From the IMG/VR virus record IMGVR_UViG_3300045988_162923: a stretch of DNA of 64,000 bases; one strand, 5' to 3'. The stretch is from a virus. The stretch's first letter is position 1; each line of letters opens with the position of its first letter. The notes beneath the pieces are model-generated. The model was not told the origin of the DNA. It saw only the letters and a program-made list of their open reading frames with translations, and did not search any database. Position numbers and translations under genes: made by a program. Shown one piece after another: positions 7,950-25,752 of this stretch.

Positions 7950-7989
7950 AAAAGATTTTTTAACTAAACAAAACAAGACAACTTTTTTA

Positions 7990-8065
7990 ATTACGCTGCT
8001 CTACCACTTGAGCTATCGTTTGTAAATTAATACGCACGAGTTGGACTCGAACCAACAACACACGG
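7990..8065 (-). ncRNA. Two juxtaposed tRNA fragments in non-cloverleaf order: a 3' half (T-arm + acceptor 3' strand, 8040-8065) followed by a 5' half-like piece (acceptor/D-arm AAACGATAGCTCAAGTGGTAGAGC, 7990-8030)
   Basis: T arm GTTGG-TTCGAGT-CCAAC-TCGTGCG on the minus strand directly after promoter and leader. D-arm consensus GCTCAAGTGGTAGAGC follows it. The two pieces cannot pair as one tRNA. Confidence 0.3.
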
Positions 8066-8126
8066 ATTACCAATCAATTTAAAAAATTAAAATTGCTGTA
8101 ATTGTCTTTCTTTATCTTACATATAT

Positions 8127-8271: not shown

Positions 8272-8343
8272 TTCCAGAGCGTGGATTTGAACCACGGTCT
8301 TCAGGATTTTACTCTGATAGGCTATCCTCTACCCCACTTCGGA
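8272..8343 (-). tRNA. tRNA, anticodon unresolved (loop AGTAAAATC; 4-bp anticodon stem)
   Basis: Acceptor TCCGAAG/CTCTGGA (one mismatch), T arm CGTGG-TTCAAAT-CCACG. No encoded CCA. Confidence 0.45.
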
Positions 8344-8416: not shown

Positions 8417-8475
8417 AAATAATCTTATAGACTAGAATTGACCAGTATTAAATAGTTTTATTTAATAATAAATAA

Positions 8476-9435
8476 TCAATATCTATCATAGTCTGTATAA
8501 GGAATTCTTAATAAAGGAATATTATTTTTTTTACAATATTTATCCTTCATTTTATCATGTTCAATAACTTTATCTGTATGCCATATACTTGATTGATTAA
8601 AATGCTATTTACCATCATATTCAATTAATTTTAAAACTTTTCCGTTATGATCTAAAATAGCAAAATCAAATCGTAAATAATTTTTATCTTTTAAATCATT
8701 AAAAGTATATTCCTAAATAAAAGAAATATTATTATTTATTAAAATTTTTTTTATTAAATTTTCTCCTAATGAATTCCCTATGCATCCACAGGACTAAGTA
8801 AGTCCCTATAATAGGCTTGATTGCCGAATACTTTTAATATTTCCACAATCACATTGACATACCCAATATGCCTTGTCTTTTTGTTCTTCATCTTTATGTA
8901 GAGCAATTAATTTACCGAATCTTCGTCCAACTAAATTTAATCTTTTAGATTGAATTCCTAAAGGCTAAATATTTTCTATCATATTTATTTTTGCTTTTTC
9001 TTTCTATAAACATCCACAAGACTGAGTATGTTCTGATTTTAAAGATGAAGTAGTAACATTTACAATATTTCCACAGTCACATTTACATTCCCAATAAGAA
9101 GCAGTATTATTTAATTCTTTTCGCTTTAAAATAGTATATTCTTTATTAAAAGATAATACTGTTAATTTACCAAATTTTTGTCCCGATAAATCATCATAAA
9201 AGCTCGGATTATCTTTACGATTTCGATTAATATTTCCTTTTAAACGATTCTCTTTTCCTAAACAACCGCAAGATAAAATTTTTCCATTACGCAAATCAGC
9301 ACCACGAATATTTTTTATTATCCCACAATCACACTAGCATTTCCATAAAAGCTTATTAGAATTATCATGTCCAGCTTCTTCTAAAACTATTAATCTACCA
9401 AAACGCTAATCTATTAAATTTATTTTTTTACCCAA
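8476..9435 (-). CDS. Homing-endonuclease-like protein: three Zn-ribbon repeats (RFGKL..W.C.CDCGN..SCGC) + C-terminal PD-(D/E)XK / DUF559-like nuclease domain (RFDFAI..IEYDGK-Q-HF); TAG-recoded; start approximate (TTG at 9435)
   Basis: ORF-track fragment 9004..9294 is the middle repeat. Full reading frame continuous with TAG=Q. TAG sits at the Q of the DGKQH motif, which is CAA in the paralogue at 22523-23323. Confidence 0.6.
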
Positions 9436-9448
9436 AAATAGACCTTCT

Positions 9449-9500
9449 TTCTGTTCTTCTTTTAATATTATTAAGAAATCTACTTAGAAGAAGAACAGAA
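9449..9500 (-). terminator. Hairpin (12-bp stem TTCTGTTCTTCT/AGAAGAACAGAA) + U-tract on minus strand; terminator after gene 9511-9807
   Basis: Perfect inverted repeat seen in sequence, followed on the minus strand by TCTATTTTT. Confidence 0.45.
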
Positions 9501-9510
9501 AATGACCAAC

Positions 9511-9807
9511 TTAAAGACCTAATTTTTCCATTAAATCCTGGATATGTTTTTTCTCATCTTCAGTAATTTCTTTCTTCTCCTGAACTACTGGAGCAGAATC
9601 TTCAAAATTCATTGCCTTAGAACCAACAGTAGATACATCGCCAACTGGATTCTTAGGACAAGTCATAGAAATAGCAATCTACAGGCGTTCTCCATTCTCG
9701 GTAGCCCAAACATATAATTTACCATCATATTCTCCTATATAATCTTTACCAAATGCTGATGATATTCTACTTTTAACTTCTACTTTCGCAACGCTACCAC
9801 GAGCCAT
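9511..9807 (-). CDS. Small hypothetical protein (98 aa), one in-frame TAG (recoded)
   Basis: MARGSVAKVEVKSR...; ATG overlaps the stop of the upstream nuclease gene (TAATATG). Confidence 0.45.
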
Positions 9808-9808
9808 A

Positions 9809-10546
9809 TTAACTTTCTCCTTTTTTTACAAGATATTTATCACTAAATATCATTTCTATTGTTATATTATTTTTTTCCCAATAAGGAATTCGAACAAGAG
9901 GAATATTATGTTCAAAAGCAAAATAATTTTTTATTAAATCAGATTGCTAAGTCCGTTCAAAAGATTCTCTTCCCCATTTAGCTGGCTTAAAATGCTATTC
10001 ACCATCAAATTCAACCAGTCTAATTAAATTATTATCTTTATCAAAAATAGCAAAATCATATCTTTTATTTTTTAATTCAGAAAATTTAAATTCTTTAGCA
10101 AAAGAAATATTATTTTCTTCTAAAATATCTATAATTTTCTATTCCCCTAAAGATATTCCATTTTTACATCCACAGCTGCTAGTATTTCCACTTCTTAATT
10201 CTGCCCCAGCAACAGATACGATATTTCCGCAATCACATCTACAAATCCATTTTACTTTTCCATTAATACTTTTTGATACTGTATCTTTATATAAAACAGT
10301 TAATTTACCATATTTATTACCAGTCTCATCTTTTCCAATTGCTTCAAAAACTTTTTCATTTCGTAAGCATCCACAACTTTTTGTTGCTCCATTTTTTAAA
10401 CTTAAAGCAGCAATACTTTTTTGATTCCCGCAACTACACTAACAAATCCAATATGTTCTATGATGCTTCTTAGAGGCTTCTTCATCTTTTTTTAAAACAG
10501 TTAATCGTGAAAAAACTTTTCCAATTAAATCTTCAGATTTTGGCAT
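9809..10546 (-). CDS. Homing-endonuclease-like protein: two Zn-ribbon repeats + DUF559-like PD-(D/E)XK domain ([21 protein letters not shown]); TAG-recoded
   Basis: [18 protein letters not shown]...YWIC-Q-CSCGN...SCGC. RBS AAGGAAGAATTTATATG. 4 in-frame TAGs. Confidence 0.6.
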
Positions 10547-10637
10547 ATAAATTCTTCCTTTCTCTATATCTTCTAATTATATTAAATTTTAAGATAAGAA
10601 AATTGAAAAATTTTGTCCATCTTTTTATCTAAAAATT

Positions 10638-12083
10638 TTAATTTGTCCCTTCGCCATTATTAGCCTCCATTATTTTCTTCTCTAATTTATTACATTCATC
10701 AAAAACTAATTGCTTTAAATCAAATGGTTCTCCTCGTTCCATATCTTCTGAACACCAAGGACATAAATATTTATGATATTCCTCATTATATTTCATAGAA
10801 CTGCGATAATATCCATTACCGCATCTATCACAAGTCATACATTCATTTTTAAAGCAATCACTACAAACTATTTCGTCTGAATCAACATAATAAGCTTCAT
10901 CTAATAATATTCTGCGACCACAACAGTCACAATATCCAAAAATATCATTTTCACTATCACCATATGCTAATTCACAACTATCACATCGCATAAAATCACT
11001 ATGCTCAATTAATGATTTACCACAATTTAAACAATTAATTTCTCCGCCAATATCCCAATGCCATTCATCAGCATCACTAGCATAAAATCCTCTCGATCGG
11101 ACTGCTATATAAGGTCGATAGCATGAAGAATTTATCAAATCATCAAATTGTAAAGAATTTTTAGCATCTGCTACTTTATCTCTAATTGGATAAATTTTCC
11201 CACCAATTGCAATATAATCAGTATCTAAAGGATATTGCTTACCAGAAATTTTATCAGTATAGCCAGTAATATTACTATCTTCCCATTTATGAAACTCTAC
11301 TCCCATATTATTTAAACACATAGAAATAGTCTCTAAGGCGCTTAAAGTAGAAAGAGGATATTGCCGACCCGCAAAAATTGCTCTCCAATTCTTTTCAAAG
11401 AAAATTAATACTCTCCATTTTTTAGAATTCCAAAGCACATCTTCAGGAAAATTAGGTAATCTTACCCCATCAGCACCTTTTAAATAACAAATTACAGTTG
11501 ATTTATCAACCATATATGAAAGATTTCCTGCGCGATACTCACCGTCAAGCGCATGGCAAGACCGCCAATTATAAGTATTCTCACTTGAACTTAAAAAATC
11601 AAGTGGATGAACTGATATACATAACTTACCCTCAATCTTATCCTCTTGGATAACACGGCTTGCGCTATTTTGAATATCATTCAATAAGTCTTTATCAGAA
11701 ATAAAATACTTAAATGCTTTAACTAGTTTCATGCCTATTGGAATAATTTTACCATCAGGTAATTTATATTCTTCAATAACTTGATTAGTAAAAAATCCAT
11801 CTCTATTAATTTCAATAAAATCAATTAAATCATAATTGCTATATAAGCAATCAATTGTATCCAAAAAATTATTTAAATTCTTTTGTTTTTCTCTTTTATC
11901 AAGCTTTAAATGTAATACATACGGATATTCATAAATTAGATTACCACCAAATAATTCAATAAAATCTCTTTTAGCGTCTAAAAATCTATTAAATAATTCT
12001 TCTGTTTTAGGATTTTCAATTCCTTGTGAATAACGAATTACTTCATCGAATTGTTTTTTAATTTCTCTGATGTCGAATGACAT
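10638..12083 (-). CDS. Cys-rich protein, paralogue A (conserved N-domain + C-terminal multi-CxxC zinc-ribbon cluster); standard code
   Basis: 481-aa ORF. Shares ...C-SxHP-DF/Y...W.SC....E.R.G......WNxKKWR with 14938..16566. C-terminus CLNCG..CDSC..CDCCG..CSDC..CDRCG..CPWC. Confidence 0.65.
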   Translation of the reverse strand: MSFDIREIKKQFDEVIRYSQGIENPKTEELFNRFLDAKRDFIELFGGNLIYEYPYVLHLKLDKREKQKNLNNFLDTIDCLYSNYDLIDFIEINRDGFFTNQVIEEYKLPDGKIIPIGMKLVKAFKYFISDKDLLNDIQNSASRVIQEDKIEGKLCISVHPLDFLSSSENTYNWRSCHALDGEYRAGNLSYMVDKSTVICYLKGADGVRLPNFPEDVLWNSKKWRVLIFFEKNWRAIFAGRQYPLSTLSALETISMCLNNMGVEFHKWEDSNITGYTDKISGKQYPLDTDYIAIGGKIYPIRDKVADAKNSLQFDDLINSSCYRPYIAVRSRGFYASDADEWHWDIGGEINCLNCGKSLIEHSDFMRCDSCELAYGDSENDIFGYCDCCGRRILLDEAYYVDSDEIVCSDCFKNECMTCDRCGNGYYRSSMKYNEEYHKYLCPWCSEDMERGEPFDLKQLVFDECNKLEKKIMEANNGEGTN

Positions 12084-13060
12084 TCAAGTAGGCCTCCTGC
12101 GCAATCATTACAAATTTTCTTAGGATTATTTGGATCAATTTCAAATGGTTCTCCACAATTATCGCACCATTCAATATTTTCTACCATACAATCAGGGCAG
12201 TAAAAACAAGTCTTACCATCTAATCCTTTCACAGGAAAGACCTCATAACCAGAAAATAATCCCTTACATTTCTTACAATGAACATAAAAATCATTATCAC
12301 CTGCGGCTCCATTACTATTATATAAATCTTGGAACCATCTTTTAGCAGATAAACTAAATTCAATATATTTAAAATCTGGGATAGATTCTTTTTGAAGCAT
12401 CTTTTTAACTTTTTCAATAGTATTTAAAAGAGCACTAATATTTAGAGTTTCAATATATGTGTGTTCATTTTCATAACCAACTGATAAATTTGTGCTACAA
12501 ACCTGCCAAGCTGGTCCTAAAATACTAATATCAGAAAAACTACCAAAATCTTCAATAAATCCAAAAGATTCAATATATGCTATAAAATCGTCATTATCAC
12601 ATGAATAGAATACACAATCATTTTTTCCTTGTCTATCCAATTCAATCATATACTTTAACTGCGGAAATGGACAATTCTCTTGAGCCAATACAGATGCTCC
12701 AATGCCGCCTTGTTCTTCATCAGTAGTAAAAATGATATGTGGACGCAAATTTGTAGAACGTAATATCTGAATAATCGCATATACGCCTGCTCGATCATCA
12801 GCTCCAAGGCCCTGCGGACTCCACATAACATTTTTTCTTGTATCATAATATAATTCAGAAACAGGTTTAGGAAAAACTGTATCCATATGGGCTACAAGAG
12901 CGATCGGAATATCACCGACGGCATAAATATAATCCGCAGTAGTTTTTACTGTTTTGTATTTACTCTGAAGAAAATAAGACATAGTTTTAAGTAAGCTGCC
13001 CTGTTTCATTTTAAATAGCTGCTCTAATGTCTCATATTCTTTTGCTTTCAACCCACGCAA
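12038..13060 (-). CDS. M42/M20-family metallopeptidase-like domain (HMDTV...GADDRAG...TDEEQG) fused to C-terminal zinc ribbons; standard code
   Basis: 340-aa ORF. Motifs typical of co-catalytic metallopeptidases. C-terminal CKKCKG..CFYCPDC..CDNCG..CNDC. Overlaps upstream gene by 46 nt. Confidence 0.55.
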   Translation of the reverse strand: MRGLKAKEYETLEQLFKMKQGSLLKTMSYFLQSKYKTVKTTADYIYAVGDIPIALVAHMDTVFPKPVSELYYDTRKNVMWSPQGLGADDRAGVYAIIQILRSTNLRPHIIFTTDEEQGGIGASVLAQENCPFPQLKYMIELDRQGKNDCVFYSCDNDDFIAYIESFGFIEDFGSFSDISILGPAWQVCSTNLSVGYENEHTYIETLNISALLNTIEKVKKMLQKESIPDFKYIEFSLSAKRWFQDLYNSNGAAGDNDFYVHCKKCKGLFSGYEVFPVKGLDGKTCFYCPDCMVENIEWCDNCGEPFEIDPNNPKKICNDCAGGLLECHSTSEKLKNNSMK

Positions 13061-13096
13061 TTAAAAATTTCTCCTTATATTCTATTTTGTAATTAT

Positions 13097-13125
13097 ATTA
13101 TATCATATTTTTTAATTATTGTCAA
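13097..13125 (-). promoter_or_regulatory. Consensus promoter TTGACA-17-TATAAT (minus strand) driving 12038..13060
   Basis: Reverse complement reads TTGACAATAATTAAAAAATATGATATAAT. Confidence 0.55.
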
Positions 13126-13915
13126 TAATGCTCTCTGGGTGCGTAAAACCAACACCTTTAGTCCAGTAATCTTTATTCTTATCTACTTCTCGACTAAACT
13201 TTAGCGCAGTTTCACAAAAGCTACAAGCACTTCCACTTTGGCATCTTTGCTTACATTTAATACGCATCGGCGCAAATTCATCAGGGATGCCGCGATTATC
13301 GACATTATATTTCAAATTAGTCAATAAGAGATTTAAATTACCGGGCCATAATTCTTCTTTATAAATTCCTAATAAAGTTGCCTCTTTTTCTAAACTATCG
13401 GTATCAAATTGAATAGTATCCACATATGCGCTATAAACTTTTACATCTTCTGGACGAATATAAAATCCACGGATTCCATTTTTACGAGGAATAAAGCCAT
13501 CATAACATACATTAGCAATTACTCGAATCGGTAATCCTATCTTCTTCACTTCTGGAAGTTGAAAAGTTAGTGGAACACCTAAAAATAATTGTTTTACACC
13601 TAAATCAACTAATCCATTTAATTCATACCATGTAGTAATTGGATAAGCCCAATAATAATTAATTGAACGTGAATTACACTCACTTGCCATAAATATATTT
13701 TCAATAGCAAGAGTAAGTTTTACTTTTTCAGAGAACATTTTTAATTCGTCCCAATCAATCTATGGAGTATTCTTTGGAATACGAATTACATACTCTTTAT
13801 CATAAAAATCATCAATAATATTATATAAGCCTTCAATATCTTTATAATCAAGCATAATTTCATCAGCTACGCGCTTATTTGCCGCAGACTACCGAATTGA
13901 TACGGAATATTTCAT
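13112..13915 (-). CDS. Hypothetical protein (267 aa) with C-x3-C-x5-C-x2-C cluster; N-terminal 59 codons include two TAG codons (recoded) upstream of the track ORF 13112..13738
   Basis: Consensus promoter at 13925-13953 and RBS AAGGAGTG sit directly in front of the ATG at 13915. The frame is continuous into MFSEKVKL... only if the two TAGs are read as sense. Confidence 0.45.
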
Positions 13916-13924
13916 ATTATATCA

Positions 13925-13953
13925 CTCCTTATATATATTATAACTTATTTTTG
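13925..13953 (-). promoter_or_regulatory. Consensus promoter TTGACA-17-TATAAT (minus strand)
   Basis: Reverse complement reads TTGACATTTGTGCAAAAATAAGTTATAAT, followed by AAGGAG and the ATG at 13915. Confidence 0.55.
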
Positions 13954-14043
13954 CACAAATGTCAATAAAAATTAGTAAGCAATCTTTTATTTTTGGTTTT
14001 ACGAGTGATGCGTCCATCGCTGGCCGGAGCAGACCCTATAAAA

Positions 14044-14072
14044 AAAGGACTGGGAAATTTCCCAGTCCTTAA
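14044..14072 (-). terminator. Rho-independent terminator for minus-strand gene 14082..14498 (AGGACTGGG-AAATTT-CCCAGTCCT + U-run on minus)
   Basis: Perfect 9-bp stem. A7 tract on the plus strand to the left, which is a T-run on the minus strand after the hairpin. Confidence 0.55.
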
Positions 14073-14081
14073 TACGCTATA

Positions 14082-14498
14082 TTAGCCGTTAATTCGACGA
14101 TAGCCATTAACGGTTCTCTTCTTAGAAGTCTCAGTCGCAGGAATCGTAATTTCAGACTTCTCAACCTCGCCGGCCTTAACCAGAGAAGACAGGCGGTAAG
14201 AAACCTTCGCCGCAGTAGCATCCGGCTCCTCTTCAGCAACCATCGCAGTTACATCAGCAATAGACTTAAACTCATCGGTAGCCAAAGCCGCACGAACCAG
14301 AGCAGTCAGAATATCACCCTCAGCAGCCTTCGCCGCAGCACGTTCCTTAGCCTTTGCTGCCTTCTTATCAAGCAGGTCAATTTCATTCTCACAGAACGAA
14401 ATAACCTCAGCCGGATCATAGCGGCATTCGCCAGTCTTCATAGCCTCAGCAATTGCTTCATACATTTCACGCTTCGTAATCTTTTCCATAATTAACAC
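14082..14498 (-). CDS. Ala/Lys-rich small protein (138 aa), possibly histone-like/DNA-binding; standard code
   Basis: ORF from the track. Locally GC-richer. Preceded by two tandem consensus promoters (14543-14571, 14640-14668). Confidence 0.5.
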   Translation of the reverse strand: MLIMEKITKREMYEAIAEAMKTGECRYDPAEVISFCENEIDLLDKKAAKAKERAAAKAAEGDILTALVRAALATDEFKSIADVTAMVAEEEPDATAAKVSYRLSSLVKAGEVEKSEITIPATETSKKRTVNGYRRING

Positions 14499-14542
14499 CT
14501 TTAACCTTTCATTTTTAAAGTTTATTTATTCTTTGTATATTT

Positions 14543-14571
14543 ATTATATCTTATTTTTTGTTAAAAATCAA
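14543..14571 (-). promoter_or_regulatory. Consensus promoter TTGATT-17-TATAAT (minus strand)
   Basis: Reverse complement reads TTGATTTTTAACAAAAAATAAGATATAAT. Confidence 0.55.
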
Positions 14572-14639
14572 TTAAGATTTAAAGTCGGGGTAAAAGTTTT
14601 TTCTTTATTTCTCTTACCCTTTCTTTATCTTACATATAT

Positions 14640-14668
14640 ATTATATCTTATTTTTTATTAAAAATCAA
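14640..14668 (-). promoter_or_regulatory. Consensus promoter TTGATT-17-TATAAT (minus strand), tandem with 14543
   Basis: Reverse complement reads TTGATTTTTAATAAAAAATAAGATATAAT, preceded by the conserved leader. Confidence 0.55.
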
Positions 14669-14850
14669 ATAACTTTTTTGAAATCGACAAATTGTTCATA
14701 ATGTTCCTTTAAAGTATCTGCTGCTTTTTCAGTCATTTCTTCTTCTGGAATAGTTACTAATCCATCTTTTAATTGTTGAAAAGTAGTCCCTATTGCTCTA
14801 TAAGATTCAATAGCTTCTTGTAAAGCTTTATTTAAACTATCCCATAACAT
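14665..14850 (-). CDS. Small hypothetical protein (61 aa)
   Basis: ORF from the track. Confidence 0.35.
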   Translation of the reverse strand: MLWDSLNKALQEAIESYRAIGTTFQQLKDGLVTIPEEEMTEKAADTLKEHYEQFVDFKKVI

Positions 14851-14937
14851 ATCTTCTAGAGGATTAGTTATTTTTGCTTCTTGCTAATAATCAGAGGCTC
14901 TATATACTAAAGTAGATCCACGCGCCTAAGACTAAGA

Positions 14938-16566
14938 CTAATCTTTCAAACTGTCAAGGAACCATTGCCGGCCTTCTTTACTATTAATGGAAAAAATATC
15001 ACGTAGTCTATCAGCAGCTTCACTATCCGATTCAATCAAAGTTTCAAAATCTACTCGATAATGAACTCCAAAAGATGACTGGATAGGATCACTAATAATT
15101 AATCCAGTTTCTTCATAATCACTCTTACAATTGTAACAAAGATAAGCAGAACGCCAAGTTAATTTATTATCTTTATAAAGACGAATTTCATTCAAATACT
15201 CATTATAAAAAGCGTCGCCACAGTCTTCACACGTGCCAGCTTTTTCAGTATAACAGTCATAGCACAAACAAGTATCATCGTCAATCCAATAGTAATCATC
15301 ATTATGAATAATATCACCACAACATTTACATCTTATGGCATTAGAGCAATTATCACAAAGCAACATACAAGTATCACTAATATCACAAATCTCTTCGCCA
15401 CAATTCATACATTCACTATAGCCAGAATAATCAATATCAATTTCGTGCGGTGCTTCGATGCCAATAAAACATTTTTGATTTTTGGAATAAACATCATTAT
15501 ACATCTTATCACAATAGATGTTAATTGAATAGGGCTTATCATTCAATTCCAAACAAAAATTATTATAATCAGCATCACGGAAGTTATTATAATAAGTACA
15601 AAGATTACTATATTGCCAACCAAGATTAGTAGCCGCAAGATCTCTAATCCATTTCATACAAAGACCATTTAATTCATCATTATGCCAAGGATACTGACGA
15701 ATATCACTAATCAAATCTTTGGTGATAATATAAAGCTGACGCCATTTCTTATTATTCCAATGTGAAAGCTTCTCACCCCAGCCAAATTCCATATCTTCTT
15801 TTGCGCGAAGATAAGCAACAAGGACGCAAGGAGAGTTCATCATTTCAACAGTGCCAATACGATAATCGCCTTCATTACGCCAATTCATACAACTGTCCCA
15901 ATCGCAGTCATTATCACTCATGGTCACATAATCCATAGGATGAATTGACAAACAAAGTGTACCTTTAATAGTATCTTGATTTAAAAATTGAGAATGGGCA
16001 ATTCTAAATTCTTCATATTTTGCTTCTGACAGCTCAAAGAATTTTGTCAACTTACCAAGTAATTTACTGATTTTGGCACCTTTATTGACTAACATTGTTT
16101 GTCCATCATCACTACGAGTAATAGTAAAAGTATCACCCGTATAAATATTATTATGAAGGCTTTCAAAAGTAGTTAGCTCTCTCAAAGCCATAATGTCTTC
16201 AAGCCGATTTACTTTATAAAGAGGATCATGATAGCTTTCTGGCGTCTCAAGATTTCTTTTATCAGCAGTAAAGTCTTGATATTCACGAATAAACTTATAA
16301 CCAATCCGCCAATAACCAAGACAATCTTCAAAATCAGATCTAGACTGGCGCTCAGAACGTTTAAAAGTTACATCTTTGGAAATAGTAAATTTTTCACCAA
16401 GCATCTTCCAAAGAGTTACTTTCTCCTTATCCCAAAACCGTAAAATATGATCGACATTTTCTACATCAAGATCAGGATCTTTATCGTCACTCATACCGCC
16501 ATACATATTGATCCAATTACAAAATATTGATTTATCTTCATTACTTAAATAATTGCATAAAGCCAT
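14938..16566 (-). CDS. Cys-rich protein, paralogue B (N-domain homologous to 10638..12083 + C-terminal multi-CxxC cluster); standard code
   Basis: 542 aa. Shared GTLCLSIHPMDY...WNNKKWRQLYIITKD block. C-terminus CMNCGEEIC..CDNC..CKCCG..CYDC..CEDCG..CYNC. Confidence 0.65.
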   Translation of the reverse strand: MALCNYLSNEDKSIFCNWINMYGGMSDDKDPDLDVENVDHILRFWDKEKVTLWKMLGEKFTISKDVTFKRSERQSRSDFEDCLGYWRIGYKFIREYQDFTADKRNLETPESYHDPLYKVNRLEDIMALRELTTFESLHNNIYTGDTFTITRSDDGQTMLVNKGAKISKLLGKLTKFFELSEAKYEEFRIAHSQFLNQDTIKGTLCLSIHPMDYVTMSDNDCDWDSCMNWRNEGDYRIGTVEMMNSPCVLVAYLRAKEDMEFGWGEKLSHWNNKKWRQLYIITKDLISDIRQYPWHNDELNGLCMKWIRDLAATNLGWQYSNLCTYYNNFRDADYNNFCLELNDKPYSINIYCDKMYNDVYSKNQKCFIGIEAPHEIDIDYSGYSECMNCGEEICDISDTCMLLCDNCSNAIRCKCCGDIIHNDDYYWIDDDTCLCYDCYTEKAGTCEDCGDAFYNEYLNEIRLYKDNKLTWRSAYLCYNCKSDYEETGLIISDPIQSSFGVHYRVDFETLIESDSEAADRLRDIFSINSKEGRQWFLDSLKD

Positions 16567-16606
16567 TTAGAGTACCAACTCTCACTTTCTTTTATCTTCT
16601 ATATAT

Positions 16607-16635
16607 ATTATATCAAATTTTTATATAAAAATCAA
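16607..16635 (-). promoter_or_regulatory. Consensus promoter TTGATT-17-TATAAT (minus strand) driving 14938..16566
   Basis: Reverse complement reads TTGATTTTTATATAAAAATTTGATATAAT. Confidence 0.55.
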
Positions 16636-16675
16636 TTCCCCTCTCTGCGGCCAAACAAAGAGGGGAATCTTTTGA
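16635..16675 (-). terminator. Hairpin terminator (ATTCCCCTCT...AGAGGGGAAT + CTTTTG)
   Basis: 10-bp inverted repeat seen in sequence, between gene 16698..18113 and the promoter at 16607. Confidence 0.45.
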
Positions 16676-16697
16676 AAGGGGTTCTATATATATTAAC

Positions 16698-18113
16698 TTA
16701 CTTCTGCTGATTACTAAGCAACATCATCGGAAGGAGCTTATCCTTCATCGAAGCGCCGTCCGCTTCATCAGAAGCAAGAAAATACAACATCATAGGATTC
16801 ATATTGCTCATATTGCCACCATTTGCCAGCATAGACATCATAAGAATATCCTTCATATCCATGTCCTTATTGTCATCGCTCATCATCATCAACGGCAGCA
16901 TATTACCAAAAGGCATATCAGAAGACGGCTGAGTTACACCATTCATATCGAACAAAGAAACAATCTTTGTAACAAAATCGAAATGGAACATATTACGCAT
17001 CGGCATAATAGTTTTCTTCTCACCAGCACGGATATCAACCGCGATCAAATCACCAGTGTTCTCAGCAAAACCAACTACAAACATCGGGGTTCTATTATGG
17101 ATAATAACATCGCCGACCTTAACATCCTTAATAGCGACCGGCAGCTTAAACATATACTTAGCGCCATCAAAGTTGAACACATCAACGTCGATAATTTCAC
17201 CGCTCGCCGCATCATAAGATACATAAGTGCCGGCGGCATTCTTAATAGCGATACCATACATAGACATTCTCACATTATCATTTGCACACGGACCAAAATC
17301 AAAATTACCAAACTTCATTTTATTATTTTCCTTTCTTTTATCCCATTCTTCGTTAAAAATTTTTCGTGCTGTATCTTCAATACTATCAGCAAGAGAAATA
17401 GTACTTGTTGTGATAGGAGAAGAGCTGATAGAATATCCATCAATAGCTTTCCCAGAACCAATATTATAATCTCCTACTTGAATAGTTGTTGCTGAGCTAG
17501 TACTACCAACAGTAACAGTAGCACTTGTAGTGCTAGAAGTAGAACCAATATTTTCTGATTGAGAAGCAAAAGCTGTGGGCTGAACACTATTATAATAATC
17601 CGATGTTGCTAATTTTACTTTATTTAAAGCCTCTTTAACTTCTTGAGAACTCATAATATATTCAGTGCCTTGCTTTACAACATCATCAACAAGTTTAAAA
17701 TTATTAATAATTTCTTTATTATTATCAATATTCTTGATATATTCTTTATGCTTAATATACTTATCTTCTGTATCATCTTTAGAGGTGGAAGTCCAAAGTG
17801 CTTTATCGAGATAATCATTAGTACAATAAATCATCTCTAGTTTATCATCATCCCAGAACAAATCATACAGAAAATCGCCAAATGAACTATCATGGCGTTC
17901 AAAAGAAATCATTGTGCGAGGCTTCCCATTACGATCCTCACCCAAAGTAAGATATGCTCTACCATGAATATTAAGAATAAACATTCTGCCATCTTCAATA
18001 GCAGTTTTAATTTTGCGCCAATCATCTCGTGGCATTTTCTGATAATATTTAGCACTTACTTGATAGCTAAATTCATCAAAAATGCGCTTCATTTGATTAG
18101 TAGTAATAATCAT
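16698..18113 (-). CDS. Hypothetical protein (471 aa) with Met/Asp-rich low-complexity C-terminus; standard code
   Basis: Long ORF from the track. No recognisable motif. Confidence 0.55.
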   Translation of the reverse strand: MIITTNQMKRIFDEFSYQVSAKYYQKMPRDDWRKIKTAIEDGRMFILNIHGRAYLTLGEDRNGKPRTMISFERHDSSFGDFLYDLFWDDDKLEMIYCTNDYLDKALWTSTSKDDTEDKYIKHKEYIKNIDNNKEIINNFKLVDDVVKQGTEYIMSSQEVKEALNKVKLATSDYYNSVQPTAFASQSENIGSTSSTTSATVTVGSTSSATTIQVGDYNIGSGKAIDGYSISSSPITTSTISLADSIEDTARKIFNEEWDKRKENNKMKFGNFDFGPCANDNVRMSMYGIAIKNAAGTYVSYDAASGEIIDVDVFNFDGAKYMFKLPVAIKDVKVGDVIIHNRTPMFVVGFAENTGDLIAVDIRAGEKKTIMPMRNMFHFDFVTKIVSLFDMNGVTQPSSDMPFGNMLPLMMMSDDNKDMDMKDILMMSMLANGGNMSNMNPMMLYFLASDEADGASMKDKLLPMMLLSNQQK

Positions 18114-18124
18114 TTATCTAACTC

Positions 18125-18349
18125 CTAATTCATTCTTCGTTCAACCTCTTTTTTAATGTAATCAAGGTCACTTTGCGACAAGGAACTCGAAATAGTAATT
18201 TCAGTCTCACCTGCGCAAATTTTATCAATAATATTTTCAATCTCAGAAGTATGAAATGCGTAAGCAGAAAATGCTCTATTTTCTACAGCGCAATCATTAA
18301 CTACTGGACTCCATAAATCAAATGCGCAATGATTGCTATGGTGATACAT
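18125..18349 (-). CDS. Small hypothetical protein (74 aa)
   Basis: ORF from the track. Confidence 0.35.
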   Translation of the reverse strand: MYHHSNHCAFDLWSPVVNDCAVENRAFSAYAFHTSEIENIIDKICAGETEITISSSLSQSDLDYIKKEVERRMN

Positions 18350-18360
18350 ATTACCCCTCC

Positions 18361-18591
18361 TTAGAAATTAACTGCGTTCTTAAAATCTTCCAAAGCGCTC
18401 TTAGTCATTTCAAGGCAAGCGCGATTATCAAAATCTTCAATGATAATCTGTGTAATATCCTTAGTACAATATTCCTCATAAACATTGCCCATAGCATCGC
18501 TATAATCTTCGCCAGTCGTAATACCATAAAAATATTCAACTTCATCGCCATGACGGACACCAACTGTGTAAGTAAAATAGCAATATTCCAT
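18361..18591 (-). CDS. Small hypothetical protein (76 aa)
   Basis: ORF from the track. Consensus promoter 18644-18672 immediately upstream. Confidence 0.4.
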   Translation of the reverse strand: MEYCYFTYTVGVRHGDEVEYFYGITTGEDYSDAMGNVYEEYCTKDITQIIIEDFDNRACLEMTKSALEDFKNAVNF

Positions 18592-18643
18592 ATCTACGCA
18601 CTCTCCTTTATTTCATTTATCTCTTTCTTTATCTTACATATAT

Positions 18644-18672
18644 ATTATATCATTTATTTTTTATAAAATCAA
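18644..18672 (-). promoter_or_regulatory. Consensus promoter TTGATT-17-TATAAT (minus strand) + conserved leader
   Basis: Reverse complement reads TTGATTTTATAAAAAATAAATGATATAAT. Confidence 0.55.
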
Positions 18673-18676
18673 AAAA

Positions 18677-18700
18677 GGGAGGATTATCTCCTCCCTTTTA
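18677..18700 (-). terminator. Hairpin terminator GGGAGGA-TTATC-TCCTCCC flanked by A/T runs
   Basis: Perfect 7-bp GC stem. Terminates the small membrane-peptide genes at ~18700-18850. Confidence 0.5.
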
Positions 18701-18892
18701 TTATTTCATTCGGTGCCAACAATCTAAAGCGAAAGCAATTCCTATAATACAAATACAGGCAAGAAGTCCAAGAACCGCAGGATCACAATCCATAATTAAC
18801 CTCCTTATCGCAATATCAAAACTACAATAGCAGCAATCATAACTGCGAACACAAAAGCATCTACAAGATGACTAGTTAATTTTCCAAATTTA

Positions 18893-19348
18893 TTATCCAA
18901 AATACAACCACCATTTCGCAGTAGAGATTTCAGCGATCTCCAATTTTAGATTTTTAATTGAAATTAAATACTCATTATAAATATTTAATTGCTTCTGAAC
19001 AATTTCATTACTAGACAGTTCAGGATAAATAGAAGCAAAAATAACAGCATTATCAGGAGCCAACGCAGTATAAGTCTCTTTTTCATGGTCTAAATAATTC
19101 TGAACAACAGGATTAATACTATTTTCAATATTAGTCATTTCTTCCTGATATACAGTAATTTTTTGCTCAAGCGTATTAGCCTTAACAATTTTATTTACAT
19201 TAAAAAGACAACAAATTATTACAACAACAAGCATAACAAGTGAAATGGCAAACACTGTAGAACCGGCATCAGAATAAGGCTTCTTAAACCAGAGGATAAC
19301 ACCCAAACTAATACAAACAAGGGAAATTACAAAAAATACAATAAACAT
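18893..19348 (-). CDS. Membrane protein (N-terminal two TM helices), 151 aa
   Basis: ORF from the track. Hydrophobic N-terminus. Confidence 0.45.
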   Translation of the reverse strand: MFIVFFVISLVCISLGVILWFKKPYSDAGSTVFAISLVMLVVVIICCLFNVNKIVKANTLEQKITVYQEEMTNIENSINPVVQNYLDHEKETYTALAPDNAVIFASIYPELSSNEIVQKQLNIYNEYLISIKNLKLEIAEISTAKWWLYFG

Positions 19349-19359
19349 ATTAATTCTCC

Positions 19360-19806
19360 TTAAATAGTACGATACACAGTTTTATCAGCATAGACATTAA
19401 TATCCTTATTGCGCCAAACATCGCAATCATCTATAACAAAAGAATTTAATCTTTCCCATACTTTATAGCCATTGAACATAGTAAAATCAAAATCATTAAA
19501 AATAACCGTAGAAACCTGTCCAGTAGCTAAATCACAAAAAGTTAGGTAGGTCCAGCCATAAGTGCCACTACCATCACTATAATTAGCATATTGAATAGCA
19601 TCACAGGTTACATAAAAACGCCCACGCCACAGATTGTCATGAAGAACGCTGTCATTTAGATCTTTAATTACCTTTACAATTTTCCGCTTCAGATTCTGCT
19701 TACTCTTGGAGCTATGAGATCCTTCCCAATAAGTTTTGTCCTTATTCCGAATACAATCACAAAAATAATTTTTACGCTTTGACATTTTCCTTCCATCCTT
19801 CCTCAA
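19360..19806 (-). CDS. Hypothetical protein (148 aa)
   Basis: ORF from the track. Confidence 0.45.
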   Translation of the reverse strand: MRKDGRKMSKRKNYFCDCIRNKDKTYWEGSHSSKSKQNLKRKIVKVIKDLNDSVLHDNLWRGRFYVTCDAIQYANYSDGSGTYGWTYLTFCDLATGQVSTVIFNDFDFTMFNGYKVWERLNSFVIDDCDVWRNKDINVYADKTVYRTI

Positions 19807-20182
19807 TCACAGTAATAAAAATAGCCTTATTTTCAGTCCAAGCAAATACATAACTATTCCAAAAATTGGGATACCATGTAAAATCAACCCCATATTTATA
19901 CCCATAACTATCCAGCGTTTCCATAAGGTCAGAAATTGCTCCATTGCGGCATCTATGAGTCTCATAATGAGAATTATTCTCCATGCTGGTTACTTCATAT
20001 TCTTTAAAAATATCTTGCATAATAGTATAGATATTTTTCTTGTGTCGAATTACGCCAAGAGCTTTCAACATATCTTCGTCAGTGTAATATTCTTTTACTT
20101 TTCCCATATTAAATCTCCATACATCTTGAAAGAATAGTTTCCTTACAATTTCTAAACATTTTATGATCTTTAACTGTACCAC
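19772..20182 (-). CDS. Hypothetical protein (136 aa)
   Basis: ORF from the track. Confidence 0.45.
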   Translation of the reverse strand: MVQLKIIKCLEIVRKLFFQDVWRFNMGKVKEYYTDEDMLKALGVIRHKKNIYTIMQDIFKEYEVTSMENNSHYETHRCRNGAISDLMETLDSYGYKYGVDFTWYPNFWNSYVFAWTENKAIFITVIEEGWKENVKA

Positions 20183-20837
20183 GAATATGATGAACAGTGC
20201 CTACTTCCCATTTCTTAGAAGCAGTTGTCCAAAGGAAAATGTTATCATTTTCATCTTTGAAAGTATGCATCGTAGCCACACCGAACTGTCCATCAGTATC
20301 ATAAGTCTTTATGACAGTGACAGTAAGCTCAATACGCTGACCAATTTCACCAACATATTCGCTCGGATCTTCATCATAAAGCAGAGTATCAACAAATGCC
20401 TTTACCTTGGCATCAGGGAACAACTTACCATCCTCGCCACCAACATCTTCCCACTTTAACTGAATAGGAGTTACATCAGTCGGCAAATCCGTAGGCAGTT
20501 CTTCAGTAGAAATAAAATACCAGCCCCACAAACGAGTATAGCGAGCAGAAGACTGCTTAAACCATTCGCGATCCTCATAACAATTACCCTTGAAGATAGT
20601 AATATAACCCTTTTCAAAACCAAGAACTTCTTTCTGAGTTTTGCCCGCCTTAATTACTTTGACTTCTGGATAATACCGCGCATACTCAGTATCGCTATAC
20701 CAGCGGCACTTACGAATTGTACCAGTCGAAGGATTCTTCATATTTACATACTGCTTACCACCCGACAGGAAAATGTCACCAACCTGAGTATAAGACTGAA
20801 AACTCTTAGCAACCGGCATAATATCAATTCCTTTCAT
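20109..20837 (-). CDS. Hypothetical protein (242 aa)
   Basis: ORF from the track. Promoter 20858-20886 upstream. Confidence 0.5.
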   Translation of the reverse strand: MKGIDIMPVAKSFQSYTQVGDIFLSGGKQYVNMKNPSTGTIRKCRWYSDTEYARYYPEVKVIKAGKTQKEVLGFEKGYITIFKGNCYEDREWFKQSSARYTRLWGWYFISTEELPTDLPTDVTPIQLKWEDVGGEDGKLFPDAKVKAFVDTLLYDEDPSEYVGEIGQRIELTVTVIKTYDTDGQFGVATMHTFKDENDNIFLWTTASKKWEVGTVHHIRGTVKDHKMFRNCKETILSRCMEI

Positions 20838-20857
20838 TTCTTATCTTTTATAATAAT

Positions 20858-20886
20858 ATTATAATATATTTTTTATAAAAAATCAA
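20858..20886 (-). promoter_or_regulatory. Consensus promoter TTGATT-17-TATAAT (minus strand)
   Basis: Reverse complement reads TTGATTTTTTATAAAAAATATATTATAAT. Confidence 0.55.
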
Positions 20887-20915
20887 AGCTATTCTTTTGA
20901 ATAGCTTTGATTTTT
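20885..20915 (-). terminator. Hairpin terminator AAAGCTATTC-TTTT-GAATAGCTTT + T-run
   Basis: 10-bp perfect stem, just downstream (minus sense) of the lipoprotein gene. Confidence 0.5.
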
Positions 20916-20922
20916 ATATATA

Positions 20923-21594
20923 TTAATTAAAAACGCTCAAATCAACAATGGCGAAATTTGCGCGATGGACATAAACTGGCATACCATCAATCATAATTTC
21001 AGTGGTCTTCGGTAAATTACGAGAGACTTCCCAAGAAACATTATCGCCATTGAACATACAAATCGGATTACCATTCTGTGACTGAATAATAACCATACGA
21101 GAGCGCACAGTAGTATTACTTTGATTTTTAGTAATAAACCACCAATTCAAACTCCAATAATCACTAGCACGCAGATCACTCGGAGCAGTAACGCTATAAC
21201 CATTCTCAGTAGTTAAATCAACATTCTGCGGAATATCAATATCAATTTTTTCAAGTCGAGTATCATAGAACAAAACAGTCGAACCGCACGACTCAATCTT
21301 ATTACCATCAATATCAATAGACATTACAGAAGAAGTAGTCCAATTAGAAATCCAACTTCCGTCACTATCATAAGCGTATTCCTTAATCTTATTAGGAGAA
21401 ATATTAAAACTATTACCTTCAACACTCAACCACTGATCGCCGTAATTATCATAAAAATCAGCGACATAAGAAATCTTTACCGCATCACCGGTCTCTGAGC
21501 TTGAAGCATCCATAGTAATGGTGCTAACATCGGCACAAGCACAAAGGTTGAGAAGAAGAACAATCGTAAAAATTACCGCCATAATCTTTTTCAT
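20923..21594 (-). CDS. Putative lipoprotein (signal peptide + lipobox LLNLCAC), 223 aa
   Basis: MKKIMAVIFTIVLLLNLCACADV... Candidate superinfection-exclusion or surface protein. Confidence 0.55.
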   Translation of the reverse strand: MKKIMAVIFTIVLLLNLCACADVSTITMDASSSETGDAVKISYVADFYDNYGDQWLSVEGNSFNISPNKIKEYAYDSDGSWISNWTTSSVMSIDIDGNKIESCGSTVLFYDTRLEKIDIDIPQNVDLTTENGYSVTAPSDLRASDYWSLNWWFITKNQSNTTVRSRMVIIQSQNGNPICMFNGDNVSWEVSRNLPKTTEIMIDGMPVYVHRANFAIVDLSVFN

Positions 21595-21606
21595 TTTATT
21601 TCCTCC

Positions 21607-21885
21607 TTAATCCTGATTAAATTCAATGGCTTCATAAACATCAAGCAGGCATCGCTCACTAAGATAAACAAACATTTCATTCTTAGTCATTCCATACCAC
21701 CAATCGTAGGGGAAGATATCGCCTTCATACTCCAATTGCTGAGAATACATAATAGATTCTTCAATTTCTTCATTGATATAATCGCAAGCAAGTTCCATCA
21801 AATCTTCCCATGAAACATTGGTAAACACCTGCCGATTATACATATCGCCATAATTATCATCAATTTCAAGAATACCAACTGTCAT
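21607..21885 (-). CDS. Small acidic hypothetical protein (92 aa)
   Basis: ORF from the track. Confidence 0.4.
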   Translation of the reverse strand: MTVGILEIDDNYGDMYNRQVFTNVSWEDLMELACDYINEEIEESIMYSQQLEYEGDIFPYDWWYGMTKNEMFVYLSERCLLDVYEAIEFNQD

Positions 21886-21886
21886 A

Positions 21887-22156
21887 TTAATCCTCCCCGT
21901 ACCAAATCCCAGTATTTACATCGAGTCTATACTTCTCAGTATCGTTTTTTTCCAAAGAATGAAGGGTATATTCATCAATAAGGTTTTGTGCTTTTTCGTA
22001 ATAATCTTTATTTTCAAAGCGATAAACATCAGTAAAATTCATTGAACCAATAATAATTTTATAAGCATAATTTTCTTTAAAAAAACGTACTGTAATAGCC
22101 TGTGATAAATTTATATAAATGTACTCTTCTTCGCTAATCTGTATTTTTACTAACAT
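21887..22156 (-). CDS. Small hypothetical protein (89 aa)
   Basis: ORF from the track. Promoter 22184-22212 upstream. Confidence 0.4.
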   Translation of the reverse strand: MLVKIQISEEEYIYINLSQAITVRFFKENYAYKIIIGSMNFTDVYRFENKDYYEKAQNLIDEYTLHSLEKNDTEKYRLDVNTGIWYGED

Positions 22157-22183
22157 TTATTATTTCCTCACTTTCTATATATA

Positions 22184-22212
22184 TTATATTATATTTTTCA
22201 TAAAAAATCAAA
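22184..22212 (-). promoter_or_regulatory. Consensus promoter TTGATT-17-TATAAT (minus strand)
   Basis: Reverse complement reads TTGATTTTTTATGAAAAATATAATATAAT. Confidence 0.5.
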
Positions 22213-22522
22213 GAAGGTCTTAATTTTCATTAAGACCTTCTGAAGCGCGGCAATATAACATAATGAGGGGCCAAATAATTTTAACCAAGTCAGGATACGC
22301 AGTTTGCGCACATAATGTTTCTATCTTTTTGTCTTCTACTATTGGATCATAAGCATTTTGATTTTGAGATAATTTAATTTTAATTAAATTTTTAGATAAA
22401 TCAATTCTTGTTTCCAAGAGTTCAAGAATTTTATTATCATAATCCGCAATCTAATGCCGCAAATCACTACAAGTATCAAGATATTCAGAAATATCCATTA
22501 CTTTTTCTTTCCCTTCTTTCTT

Positions 22523-23323
22523 TTATACAATATTATACATTGAACTTATTATTTCATTATAATTTAAATGAGACAAAGATGTATATGGAATACGCTTTAA
22601 AATAATATTATTCTTTTTACAATATTCATTTTTTAAATTATCTCTAAATTGAATATCTTCTAATGTGTCTTTAGTATGGCTCCAAGTATTTGTATCTGGT
22701 CCAGTATAATGTTGTTTACCATCAAATTCAATTAAATATTGTAGATTATCGTCTTTATCAAAAATAGCAAAATCAAAGCGTAATCTATAATTAGTTAATG
22801 GATTTCGTAAATCTGGAAAAGTATATTCAGTTTTATAATTTATATTATAATTATTTAATATATCTTTTATAATTTCTTCTCCTCGAGAAGAAATACACCC
22901 ACAAGAGATAATGGCTCCAGAATTTAAATCATTTCCTCGAATAGATTTAATATTTCCACAATCACACTAACAAATATACCAACTTTCATTTTTATCTCTA
23001 CTAGCCTGTTTTCTTAATCCTTCATACTTTATAACTACTAATTTACCAAATCTATCGCCAATCTAAATAGTTCTTTGATTTTCATTATACTTTTTCATTC
23101 GAGTGCTTGCTTTAATTCTATTCTAACATCCACATGATGGGTCTTTTGCTTTTGTAAAGTATGGCATTGCCATTGGTTTAATAGTCCCACAATCACATTT
23201 ACATACCCACATAGTTTGAGTTTTATTATTTACAGTACGATACAAAGCAGTTAAATGACCAAATCTCTAATTAGTTATATCTTTAGCTTGCCCTAAAGGT
23301 ATTTTTTTATATATTTTTTCCAT
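22523..23323 (-). CDS. Homing-endonuclease-like protein: two Zn-ribbon repeats + DUF559-like PD-(D/E)XK domain ([22 protein letters not shown]); TAG-recoded (4 TAG)
   Basis: MEKIYKKIPLGQAKDITN-Q-RFGHLTAL...WVCKCDCG...SCGC-Q-NRIK...YIC-Q-CDCGN. The DGKQHY here uses CAA for Q where paralogues use TAG. Inserted among standard-code early genes. Confidence 0.6.
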
Positions 23324-23402
23324 AATTTAATAATTACCTCCTATTATTTATATTATATATAAATAATAGGAGGTATCATTTAACCGTTTTTGTCCATGAA
23401 TG

Positions 23403-24137
23403 TTACGGCAGCTTCTTTTTCTGTTTTCTTTTTCTACTTCTTACAGTCGCAGCATTAATTACAGCTCTATGAATAGATTCAACTTTAGCTAAATACCCTT
23501 GGGTCACCCATCCTTTAAGATTAATAGGTGTATAGCCAATAACATCAGCGCAAACATTATAATGAAATTTATCTTTATAGATAGGACCAGAGTGATTATG
23601 ACCGTGTAAATTTACAGCCCACTCAATGCCTTCAAGCGGCTCATGAGACAGAATAAGTTTCGGTCCAATGGTAAGAACACCTTCATACACTTCATCGAAC
23701 AAACAGTTATCGGCACTTACAGTCCAATACTCAAAAGGTGACTGAAAGCCATAACCTTCATCAACTTCATACTTACAATGAGGATAAAGCCGTTTCATTT
23801 CAAGGAGTGCTTCATCCTTCTGATATTTTTCTTTATCGAATTTTTCAGTTACAATTTCGCGCTCATAGTTGGATCGACCGGTATCATGGTTTCCAAGAAT
23901 AAGAATCTTATATCCTTTGAGCTTGCGCACGCAAGAAATATCACCTACATCGCCGAGTAGAATAAAAGTATCATGCTTACCAACTTTGTTATTAATGTTT
24001 GTAATTAATTCTTCATCTGTTGGACGCTTTGTAAAGCCAGATTTAATATCACGATCGCCAAAATGCGTATCGCCCATCAGCCATACAGCGCCCTTTTTGC
24101 CCCAATTATCAAAACAATTATAAAGACCGGGAACCAT
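23403..24137 (-). CDS. Calcineurin-like metallophosphoesterase (GDTHFG, GDVGD, GNHD, HGHNH motifs); standard code
   Basis: 244-aa ORF. Canonical phosphoesterase signature GDxHG...GDxxD...GNH[DE]...GH. Confidence 0.7.
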   Translation of the reverse strand: MVPGLYNCFDNWGKKGAVWLMGDTHFGDRDIKSGFTKRPTDEELITNINNKVGKHDTFILLGDVGDISCVRKLKGYKILILGNHDTGRSNYEREIVTEKFDKEKYQKDEALLEMKRLYPHCKYEVDEGYGFQSPFEYWTVSADNCLFDEVYEGVLTIGPKLILSHEPLEGIEWAVNLHGHNHSGPIYKDKFHYNVCADVIGYTPINLKGWVTQGYLAKVESIHRAVINAATVRSRKRKQKKKLP

Positions 24138-24899: not shown

Positions 24900-24911
24900 A
24901 ATTATTCTCCT

Positions 24912-25749: not shown

Positions 25750-25752
25750 ATT

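Follow-up and report, generated by a model that had tools for sequence, protein, structure and literature searches.

Five probable homing endonuclease genes and one fixed nuclease gene in an uncultured TAG-recoded phage

We analysed six nuclease-like genes with in-frame TAG codons in a stretch of 64,000 nucleotides (nt) of a large gut phage, virus record IMGVR_UViG_3300045988_162923 (the window), which covers only about one third of the genome. The results indicated that five of these genes, all on the minus strand, are probably selfish homing endonucleases, while the sixth (54772-55128), located between terL and the portal gene, has the same Vsr-like nuclease domain without a DNA-binding array and is fixed. 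The proteins are recoded members of a widespread Vsr-like (EDxHD) or HNH branch of homing endonucleases with an uncurated cysteine-rich (Cys-rich) array. An initial annotation of the window had described the six genes as one family of mobile, homing-endonuclease-like genes. That observation is real, with minor errors; the evidence supports the homing reading well in five genes and refutes it in 54772-55128. The six genes and three tRNA-shaped insertions are listed in Table 1.

Table 1. Nuclease genes and tRNA-shaped insertions in the window (aa, amino acids; ORF, open reading frame)
Feature	Position	Strand	Description
Probable homing-endonuclease gene, free-standing	8476-9435	-	TTG start, 319 aa, 3 Cys-rich repeats, C-terminal Vsr-like (EDxHD-type) nuclease, 8 TAGs
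Probable homing-endonuclease gene, free-standing	9809-10546	-	245 aa, 2 Cys-rich repeats, Vsr-like nuclease, 4 TAGs
Probable homing-endonuclease gene, free-standing	22523-23323	-	266 aa, 2 Cys-rich repeats, Vsr-like nuclease, 4 TAGs
HNH endonuclease gene, free-standing	1929-2525	-	198 aa, 1 Cys-rich repeat, extra CxxC finger, HNH domain, 7 TAGs
HNH endonuclease gene	5554-6036	-	160 aa, no Cys repeat, different N-terminus, 4 TAGs, inside insertion 5530-6133
Fixed core gene	54772-55128	+	118 aa, Vsr-like nuclease domain alone, 2 TAGs, motif IEYQGKQH
tRNA-shaped insertion carrying HNH gene	5530-6133	-	604 bp, anticodon loop of tRNA-Glu(UUC), between nt 36 and 37
ORF-less tRNA-shaped insertion	580-645	-	66 nt, ends GCCA, anticodon loop of tRNA-Gln(UUG) 539-679, between nt 35/36
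ORF-less tRNA-shaped insertion	1818-1890	-	73 nt, ends GCCA, loop of tRNA(UAU) 1778-1925, between nt 36/37

Relatives of the phage were retrieved from IMG/VR by protein search, and the junctions of insertions and deletions (indels) were read by direct comparison of the flanks. The main close relative, IMGVR_UViG_3300045988_151351 (terL 98% identical), was collinear with window 646-31963 at ~95% identity; a second one, IMGVR_UViG_3300026522_000023, was compared only at 22523-23323. The main relative lacked all five minus-strand nuclease genes, with clean junctions. The gene 8476-9435 lay in a 1077-bp cassette (8433-9509) missing from this relative, with one junction directly past the stop codon of gene 9511-9807. 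Around 9809-10546, an 882-bp cassette (9758-10639) stood for 32 bp of the relative and supplied the downstream gene with a diverged new start (MARGSV...), while a six-codon remnant of the original start (MAKGQI) remained at 10640-10657. Similarly, the segment 22521-23517 (998 bp, versus 90 bp in two relatives) sat in the last codons of a phosphoesterase gene and supplied a substitute C-terminal tail, the original tail (..KKGKKK*) persisting downstream of 22523-23323. The HNH gene 1929-2525, between tRNA-His and an interrupted tRNA(UAU), belonged to an 874-bp segment (1771-2644, HNH gene plus neighbouring interrupted tRNA) that replaced a different 439 bp of the relative. The carrier of 5554-6036 (5530-6133) had 0 bp at the same point in the relative, where tRNA-Glu(ttc) was intact, and is thus a precise insertion.

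Sequence identity to the relative was 69-86% in the 100-200 bp beside several inserts, compared to ~95-100% further away; beside 22521-23517, it was 69-85% in the first 200 bp versus ~95-98% further off. Additionally, P0005, a protein 63% identical to that of 9809-10546, occupied the same intergenic site in a 187-kb phage, in which the three flanking genes were only 38-44% identical. By this comparison, 9809-10546 appears younger than its surroundings, and its patchy presence at a constant site is the classical signature of homing with co-conversion. Patchy presence at a site, a property of EDxHD homing endonucleases, was found for 8476-9435, 9809-10546 and 22523-23323 and not for 54772-55128, so that the mobility first proposed for all six genes was borne out, by presence and absence in near-identical relatives, for five of them. 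Homologues in cultured phages, including one that lies between terL exons, also bear the annotation 'homing endonuclease'.

We scanned all six frames of the window for the pattern W.C.C.CG...CGC and found eight copies, confined to the four repeat-bearing genes of Table 1. The scan agreed with the three, two and two repeats followed by a PD-(D/E)XK-type nuclease first counted in 8476-9435, 9809-10546 and 22523-23323. The module (consensus RFGKL..W.C.C.CGN..SCGC, roughly 60 aa) was joined to a Vsr-like nuclease domain in three genes and to an HNH domain in one, all on the minus strand, and formed an N-terminus of Cys-rich beta-strand repeats. The gene 5554-6036, by contrast with its initial placement in one repeat-built family, had no repeat and matched phrog_10822; the six genes comprise two nuclease types, not one family, and this HNH gene has no relationship to those with repeats. 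The codon after W.C was TAG in four copies, AAA in two, CAA in one and AGA in one, which confirmed the reported TAG, CAA and AAA, whereas the reported CGT never occurred, the arginine codon being AGA.

The name zinc ribbon, initially given to the repeat, found no support, as the repeat had neither two CxxC-type knuckles on beta hairpins nor a match to a zinc-ribbon family or fold. No NUMOD or helix-turn-helix (HTH) family matched the N-termini in a Pfam scan, and the module had no curated family and no solved structure. A profile search (E <= 0.001) nevertheless detected it in 114,700 cluster representatives, in which one protein could contain as many as 13 copies, and a repeat-only protein (P0024) contained six repeats and no nuclease. 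Among cultured phages, 243 records contained the W.C.C.CG..SCGC repeat, under the annotations HNH endonuclease, AP2-domain protein or regulator. Its presence in HNH proteins of Bacillus and staphylococcal phages agrees with the likeness noted at the outset. The combination of repeat and nuclease was found in 565 phage records at 29-36% identity, mostly from phages of Staphylococcus, Streptococcus, Enterococcus, Bacillus, Lactococcus and Clostridium. These results indicate that the architecture is common in Gram-positive phages and that the window genes add members to a known type. If such abundant tandem modules read sequence, they could interest protein engineers.

The catalytic domain had the Vsr endonuclease fold, a similarity seen by structure comparison only, for which we used the database protein P0001 (97% identical to the window protein). 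In Pfam, the nuclease domain matched DUF2726 (PF10881) at 20-28 bits against a cut-off of 24.7 (27.7 bits for 8476-9435), and also DUF5889 and DUF3581; no Pfam match to DUF559 or Vsr was obtained at E <= 0.1. The initial designation as a DUF559/Vsr-like domain was accordingly right about the fold, while the family matches were to DUF2726 and DUF5889. Neither Vsr nor 3R3P was reached when the PDB was searched by sequence, whether the query was a single protein or a four-sequence profile. Among PHROG families, matches were to 374, 559, 9084 and 7140 (the first three for 8476-9435), annotated as 'HNH endonuclease', 'homing endonuclease' or 'intron encoded nuclease'.

The prototype of the EDxHD (Vsr-like) family is I-Bth0305I of Bacillus phage 0305phi8-36 (PDB 3R3P), in which E170, D196, H213 and D222 are the defining residues and N208 takes the position of Vsr His64 (PMC3239194). 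Across 98 homologues of the window proteins, E179, H185, D203 and K206 were invariant and D164 and D181 were conserved at >=90%. The motifs S.GE, RFDF, E.DG.QH and D..K were invariant or nearly so in these homologues and in all four window copies. Mapped to E170/D196/N208/H213/D222 of I-Bth0305I by motif order, not by residue-level superposition, the window proteins have the conserved E, D, H and D of an EDxHD active site. Unlike I-Bth0305I, which has two NUMOD2 HTH motifs and lies in a group I intron of recA, these genes are free-standing and have two to three Cys-rich repeats in place of a NUMOD2/HTH N-terminus, and their sequence similarity to 3R3P was undetectable by HMMER. The same overall architecture and nuclease domain were present in proteins called homing or HNH endonucleases in Herelleviridae and other Gram-positive phages. 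One of them, BE24_0055 of Staphylococcus phage vB_SepM_BE24, has the motif IEYQGQQH, like 54772-55128, but uses a different Cys4 repeat, CG.E[FY]...C..C. The window copies are TAG-recoded, unlike the Herelleviridae-type proteins of PHROG 374/559/9084/7140, for which we found no biochemical characterisation in the literature.

Both 1929-2525 and 5554-6036 contained an HNH motif with flanking CxxC pairs. The former (HH..N..CPNCH) scored 21.9 bits against Pfam HNH (cut-off 21.4); the latter (DH..N..CPNCN) scored 19.3 bits, under the cut-off, and matched phrog_10822, 'HNH endonuclease', at E 1.8e-40. The repeat genes provide a modular example in which the same Cys-rich array is joined to either a Vsr-like or an HNH cutter, with empty and occupied alleles both known.

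If the five genes home, the repeat array would read a long DNA target, one module per DNA stretch, and the nuclease would cleave, in a co-infecting relative, the allele that lacks the gene. Repair by recombination would then copy the gene together with adjacent donor sequence, and such copying would explain the divergent flanks and the duplicated gene ends. A precedent is T4 SegB, a free-standing homing endonuclease in a tRNA cluster that drives preferential inheritance of the tRNA region (PMC2330249). Like SegB, 1929-2525 lies among phage tRNA genes with a neighbouring tRNA replaced, and a relative's tRNA array has GIY-YIG genes; SegB itself is a GIY-YIG enzyme, whereas the tRNA-region genes of the window are HNH, one of them inside a tRNA gene. 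Several points weigh against homing. The Pfam scores of the nuclease domains are near or under the curated cut-offs, and the DNA-binding role of the repeat is deduced solely from its position, tandem arrangement and partner proteins. Presence and absence in close relatives rests on two contigs and could in principle arise by ordinary recombination without a nuclease of the gene's own. Delayed expression through TAG, taken up below, is likewise deduced from codon counts.

The genes might instead encode nucleases or DNA-binding proteins that serve the phage, in exclusion, attack on host DNA or regulation, and are moved by ordinary recombination. The repeat also occurs without a nuclease (P0024) and in proteins annotated as regulators or AP2-domain proteins, two segments (24660-26245 and 26958-27215) are indels without a nuclease gene, and the copy 54772-55128 is clearly fixed. 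However, one gene, 9809-10546, keeps its site across divergent phages and is more similar between them than its flanks (63% versus 38-44%), every nuclease-bearing indel has clean junctions with substitute gene ends that preserve both neighbours, and divergence peaks right beside the inserts. Conserved site, substitute ends and flank divergence are typical of homing with co-conversion, as for T4 SegB (PMC2330249), and we consider a phage-serving role unlikely.

The sixth gene, 54772-55128, behaved differently. It lies between terL (53026-54759) and the portal gene. The terL protein was encoded in 80 IMG/VR contigs at 70-98% identity (longest contigs 190-200 kb), and an orthologue of 54772-55128 was found at the identical position in 78 of these 80 loci, with 68-98% identity that tracked terL; the other two loci end before or within it. 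In Enterococcus phage EF1, the order was again terL exons, a 122-aa homologue (50% identical to 54772-55128) and portal. The gene is a fixed core gene, not a mobile one, and the initial view of it as a homing insertion at the terL/portal site fails on its constant position in these loci and in EF1.

A recent insertion of 54772-55128 as a free-standing homing endonuclease at this classic site would fit with its sharing the nuclease domain of the mobile copies, with mobile GIY-YIG genes at the terL/portal junction of some relatives and with cultured-phage homologues annotated 'homing endonuclease'. Its position and terL-like identity across the 78 loci, the same gene order in EF1 despite a portal only 29% identical, and the lack of a DNA-binding array make this very improbable. 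The protein kept E, D, H and D, and had Q at the position of I-Bth0305I Asn208 and Vsr His64 (IEYQGKQH, compared to IE[YF]DG[KE]QH in the mobile copies). We rejected this Q as a mark of inactivity, since active I-Bth0305I has Asn there and Vsr has His, and Gln is also present in the intron-borne Staphylococcus phage protein BE24_0055, which is annotated 'homing endonuclease' and lies between terL exons. The gene has probably resided for long in the packaging-gene module, as a domesticated or an ancestral component. A lone Vsr-like nuclease fixed between terL and portal, from gut to Enterococcus phages, suggests an accessory nuclease of the packaging module.

Other variation was seen around this locus. 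In the relatives L016-L018, a 1.5-kb insertion (L016 7735-9269) with two ORFs lay between terL and the Vsr-like small gene; its second ORF had the motif GFTSVVGDFLHAGH, like the HxGH signature of cytidylyltransferase-type nucleotidyltransferases, and the cargo is not a nuclease. In EF1 (L151, MF001358.1 76323-83667), terL was in >=4 pieces with an annotated HNH homing endonuclease between pieces, and neither the terL pieces nor the small Vsr-like gene carry any annotation in the record beyond hypothetical protein. GIY-YIG endonuclease genes of relatives (L081 reverse complement 8708-9358 and 2582-3523; L026 8150-8836; L080 7790-8533) were located at sites empty in the window, some within the tRNA array and some at the terL/portal junction. 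One such site was at the 3' end of tRNA-Trp, close to window 8175, another at window 2804-2833, and others flanked the terL/portal small gene on either side. The tRNA array and the terL/portal region are general landing zones for different nuclease families.

With TAG read as sense, all six frames were open at the coordinates first assigned to them, each with two to eight in-frame TAGs, as had been claimed, and no TAA, TGA or frameshift interrupted any. TAG swapped with CAA or CAG at the same positions in 48 distinct orthologue sequences of the terL/portal small gene, and a TAG of 9809-10546 fell on a nearly invariant glutamine (Q184 of FDGEQH) in the 98 homologues. No tRNA with a CUA anticodon was present in the window; the 98% relative had one ~500 bp past tRNA-Gln(UUG), which places it just outside the left edge of the window. 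TAG at glutamine positions of essential genes, together with this tRNA(CUA) in the relative's array, indicates that TAG is, as judged from sequence, a sense codon for glutamine in this phage (genetic code 15). It is scarcely credible that TAG acts as a stop and that these frames are degraded pseudogenes of former endonucleases: the standard code does break every frame (first TAG at codons 10-58) and the window has no CUA-anticodon tRNA of its own, but the frames are otherwise intact, TAG alternates with CAA/CAG and sits on conserved Gln, the essential late genes need TAG read-through (terL 10, portal 7), and the relative's tRNA(CUA) lies ~500 bp past the window edge. In locus L084, the tRNA(CUA), a TAG suppressor labelled 'Pyl' by ARAGORN, was located at 9032-9106, after tRNA-Tyr and tRNA-Val in the same tRNA array and ~500 bp past the equivalent of window position 539.

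The six genes contained 2.21 TAGs per 100 codons, compared to 0.18 in 21 neighbouring minus-strand genes and 1.08 in the late genes, and one in two of their Gln codons was TAG. The first TAG of each of the five mobile genes fell at codons 10-36, and with TAGs this early, full-length nuclease would be made only while TAG is suppressed. The five TAG-rich genes might thus be fully translated only once suppression is active, probably late in infection. Their TAG load may reflect a delay favoured by selection or, alternatively, that selfish genes are under no selection to avoid TAG. The early region is poor in TAG except for these selfish genes, which have its highest TAG content, a contrast that bears on the timing of expression through recoding.

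The insertion 5530-6133 splits tRNA-Glu(UUC) into a 5' half (6134-6170) and a 3' half (5490-5529). Insertion into tRNA genes, as first described, was therefore correct for 5554-6036 only, while 1929-2525 lies between tRNA genes. The insertion itself was tRNA-shaped, starting with a 7-nt acceptor-like strand followed by a D-arm-like TAGTTTAAG and ending with a T-arm-like GTAAGTTCAAATCTTAT (hairpin loop TTCAAAT), the complementary 7 nt and ACCA; the stop codon of 5554-6036 fell inside the T-arm-like stem. We rejected a group I intron as the carrier because there was no Rfam Intron_gpI match at E <= 1, the non-coding part was only ~120 nt, and the bases at the splice sites were wrong (the exon ends in C and the insert in A, where a group I intron has U before the 5' splice site and a terminal G). 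Homologues of the phrog_10822-type HNH protein in 27 other phage contigs were almost always in tRNA arrays, several of them inside split tRNAs with the same 5' motif.

The two ORF-less insertions were of the same kind. The relative had an uninterrupted tRNA-Gln(ttg) at the site of 580-645, which matched the covariance model at 68.6 bits, and the relative's copy of 1818-1890 showed two compensatory pair changes in the 7-bp helix. A 17-nt motif of the T-arm-like region found further nested copies in other large phages, in tRNA-Gly(UCC), tRNA-Glu(UUC) and tRNA(UAU), at loop positions 32/33, 35/36 or 36/37. Over nine sequences, the two helices were 96% paired, compared to 35-51% with the partners slid; in 9 of 12 pairs both partners had changed, and the observed values were not attained in any of 500 shuffles. 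When 380 kb of related loci were searched with the covariance model of the element, no additional copy was detected. Nested tRNA-shaped insertions were also noticed in L084-L119 and in L124, L138, L142 and L144.

Lak megaphages contain 'enigmatic' tRNA introns, one of which 'itself may encode a tRNA' (Devoto et al. 2019, PMC6784885). Both the Lak introns and the window insertions are tRNA-shaped, sit in anticodon loops and are present or absent between related TAG-recoded phages; the window differs from Lak in its clade (~200-kb genomes), in one copy with an HNH gene and in helices backed by covariation. We found no explanation of such insertions in the literature. Tentatively, the 604-bp carrier and its two ORF-less siblings could be a distinct class of mobile tRNA intron, to which the Lak introns would belong. 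The exact boundaries at an acceptor start and a CCA end suggest, speculatively, excision by tRNA-processing enzymes: the element would be released not by self-splicing but by RNase P, acting on its 5' end, and an endonuclease, acting on its CCA end, and an RNA ligase would rejoin the tRNA halves. The HNH enzyme of the long form would spread the element at the DNA level. A motif search of the window returned no RtcB, Rnl or Pnkp signatures, which is uninformative for about one third of a genome. These anticodon-loop insertions extend the unexplained Lak observation and link it to a homing endonuclease, and they are the part of this work most worth following up.

The tRNA array contained further unusual elements. 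Sub-threshold Rfam matches to YrlA, a Y RNA-like, tRNA-mimicking RNA, were obtained at 7971-8080 (-; 38.2 bits, E 1.3e-5) and 1433-1543 (-; 26.9 bits, E 0.025), against a gathering score of 69; by eye these sequences resemble permuted tRNAs with the T-arm before the D-arm. A tRNA with a non-standard anticodon loop (four-base anticodon GTAG by ARAGORN) and a tRNA-Phe with the unusual anticodon AAA were present at 7093-7164 (-) and 8272-8343 (-), and both were kept in the 98% relative.

The G+C content of the window was 34%, and reading TAG as sense sharply increased its coding capacity. An array of ~21 tRNA genes (0.5-8.3 kb, minus strand) was followed by a minus-strand block of genes mostly without TAG, and a plus-strand late block, which started at 50.7 kb, included terL, portal and further structural genes, with 10 in-frame TAGs in terL and 7 in portal. 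A megablast search of the region and the late genes against 50,697 phage records gave nothing useful; at the protein level, terL was 36-62% and portal 29% identical to those of EF1. The contig sizes, the likeness of terL and portal to EF1 and the Herelleviridae origin of some cultured homologues identify the source as an uncultured, TAG-recoded phage of ~200 kb, distantly allied to Herelleviridae.

Window 31000-50700, mostly on the minus strand, contained 29 perfect TTGACA-N16-18-TATAAT promoters, compared to 0.09 expected by chance. Most of them had an extended TG -10 element, and a small ORF with a strong ribosome-binding site stood behind each. The G+C content of this block was 38-46%, versus 27-35% elsewhere in the window. 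These results suggest early genes read by a Bacillota-type sigma-A polymerase, and the promoter set points to a host among Gram-positive Bacillota. The idea that 32-48 kb is non-coding or uses another code was rejected, as the stretch consists of small early genes, each behind a consensus promoter.

Two further differences from the close relatives were recorded. The segments 24660-26245 and 26958-27215, missing from two close relatives, contained small TAG-free ORFs without any nuclease signature, which means that only some of the indels here go with an endonuclease. Compared with the close relative, gene 16698-18113 carried an insertion of 236 bp (17545-17779) in the Ser/Thr-rich middle of its 472-aa protein.

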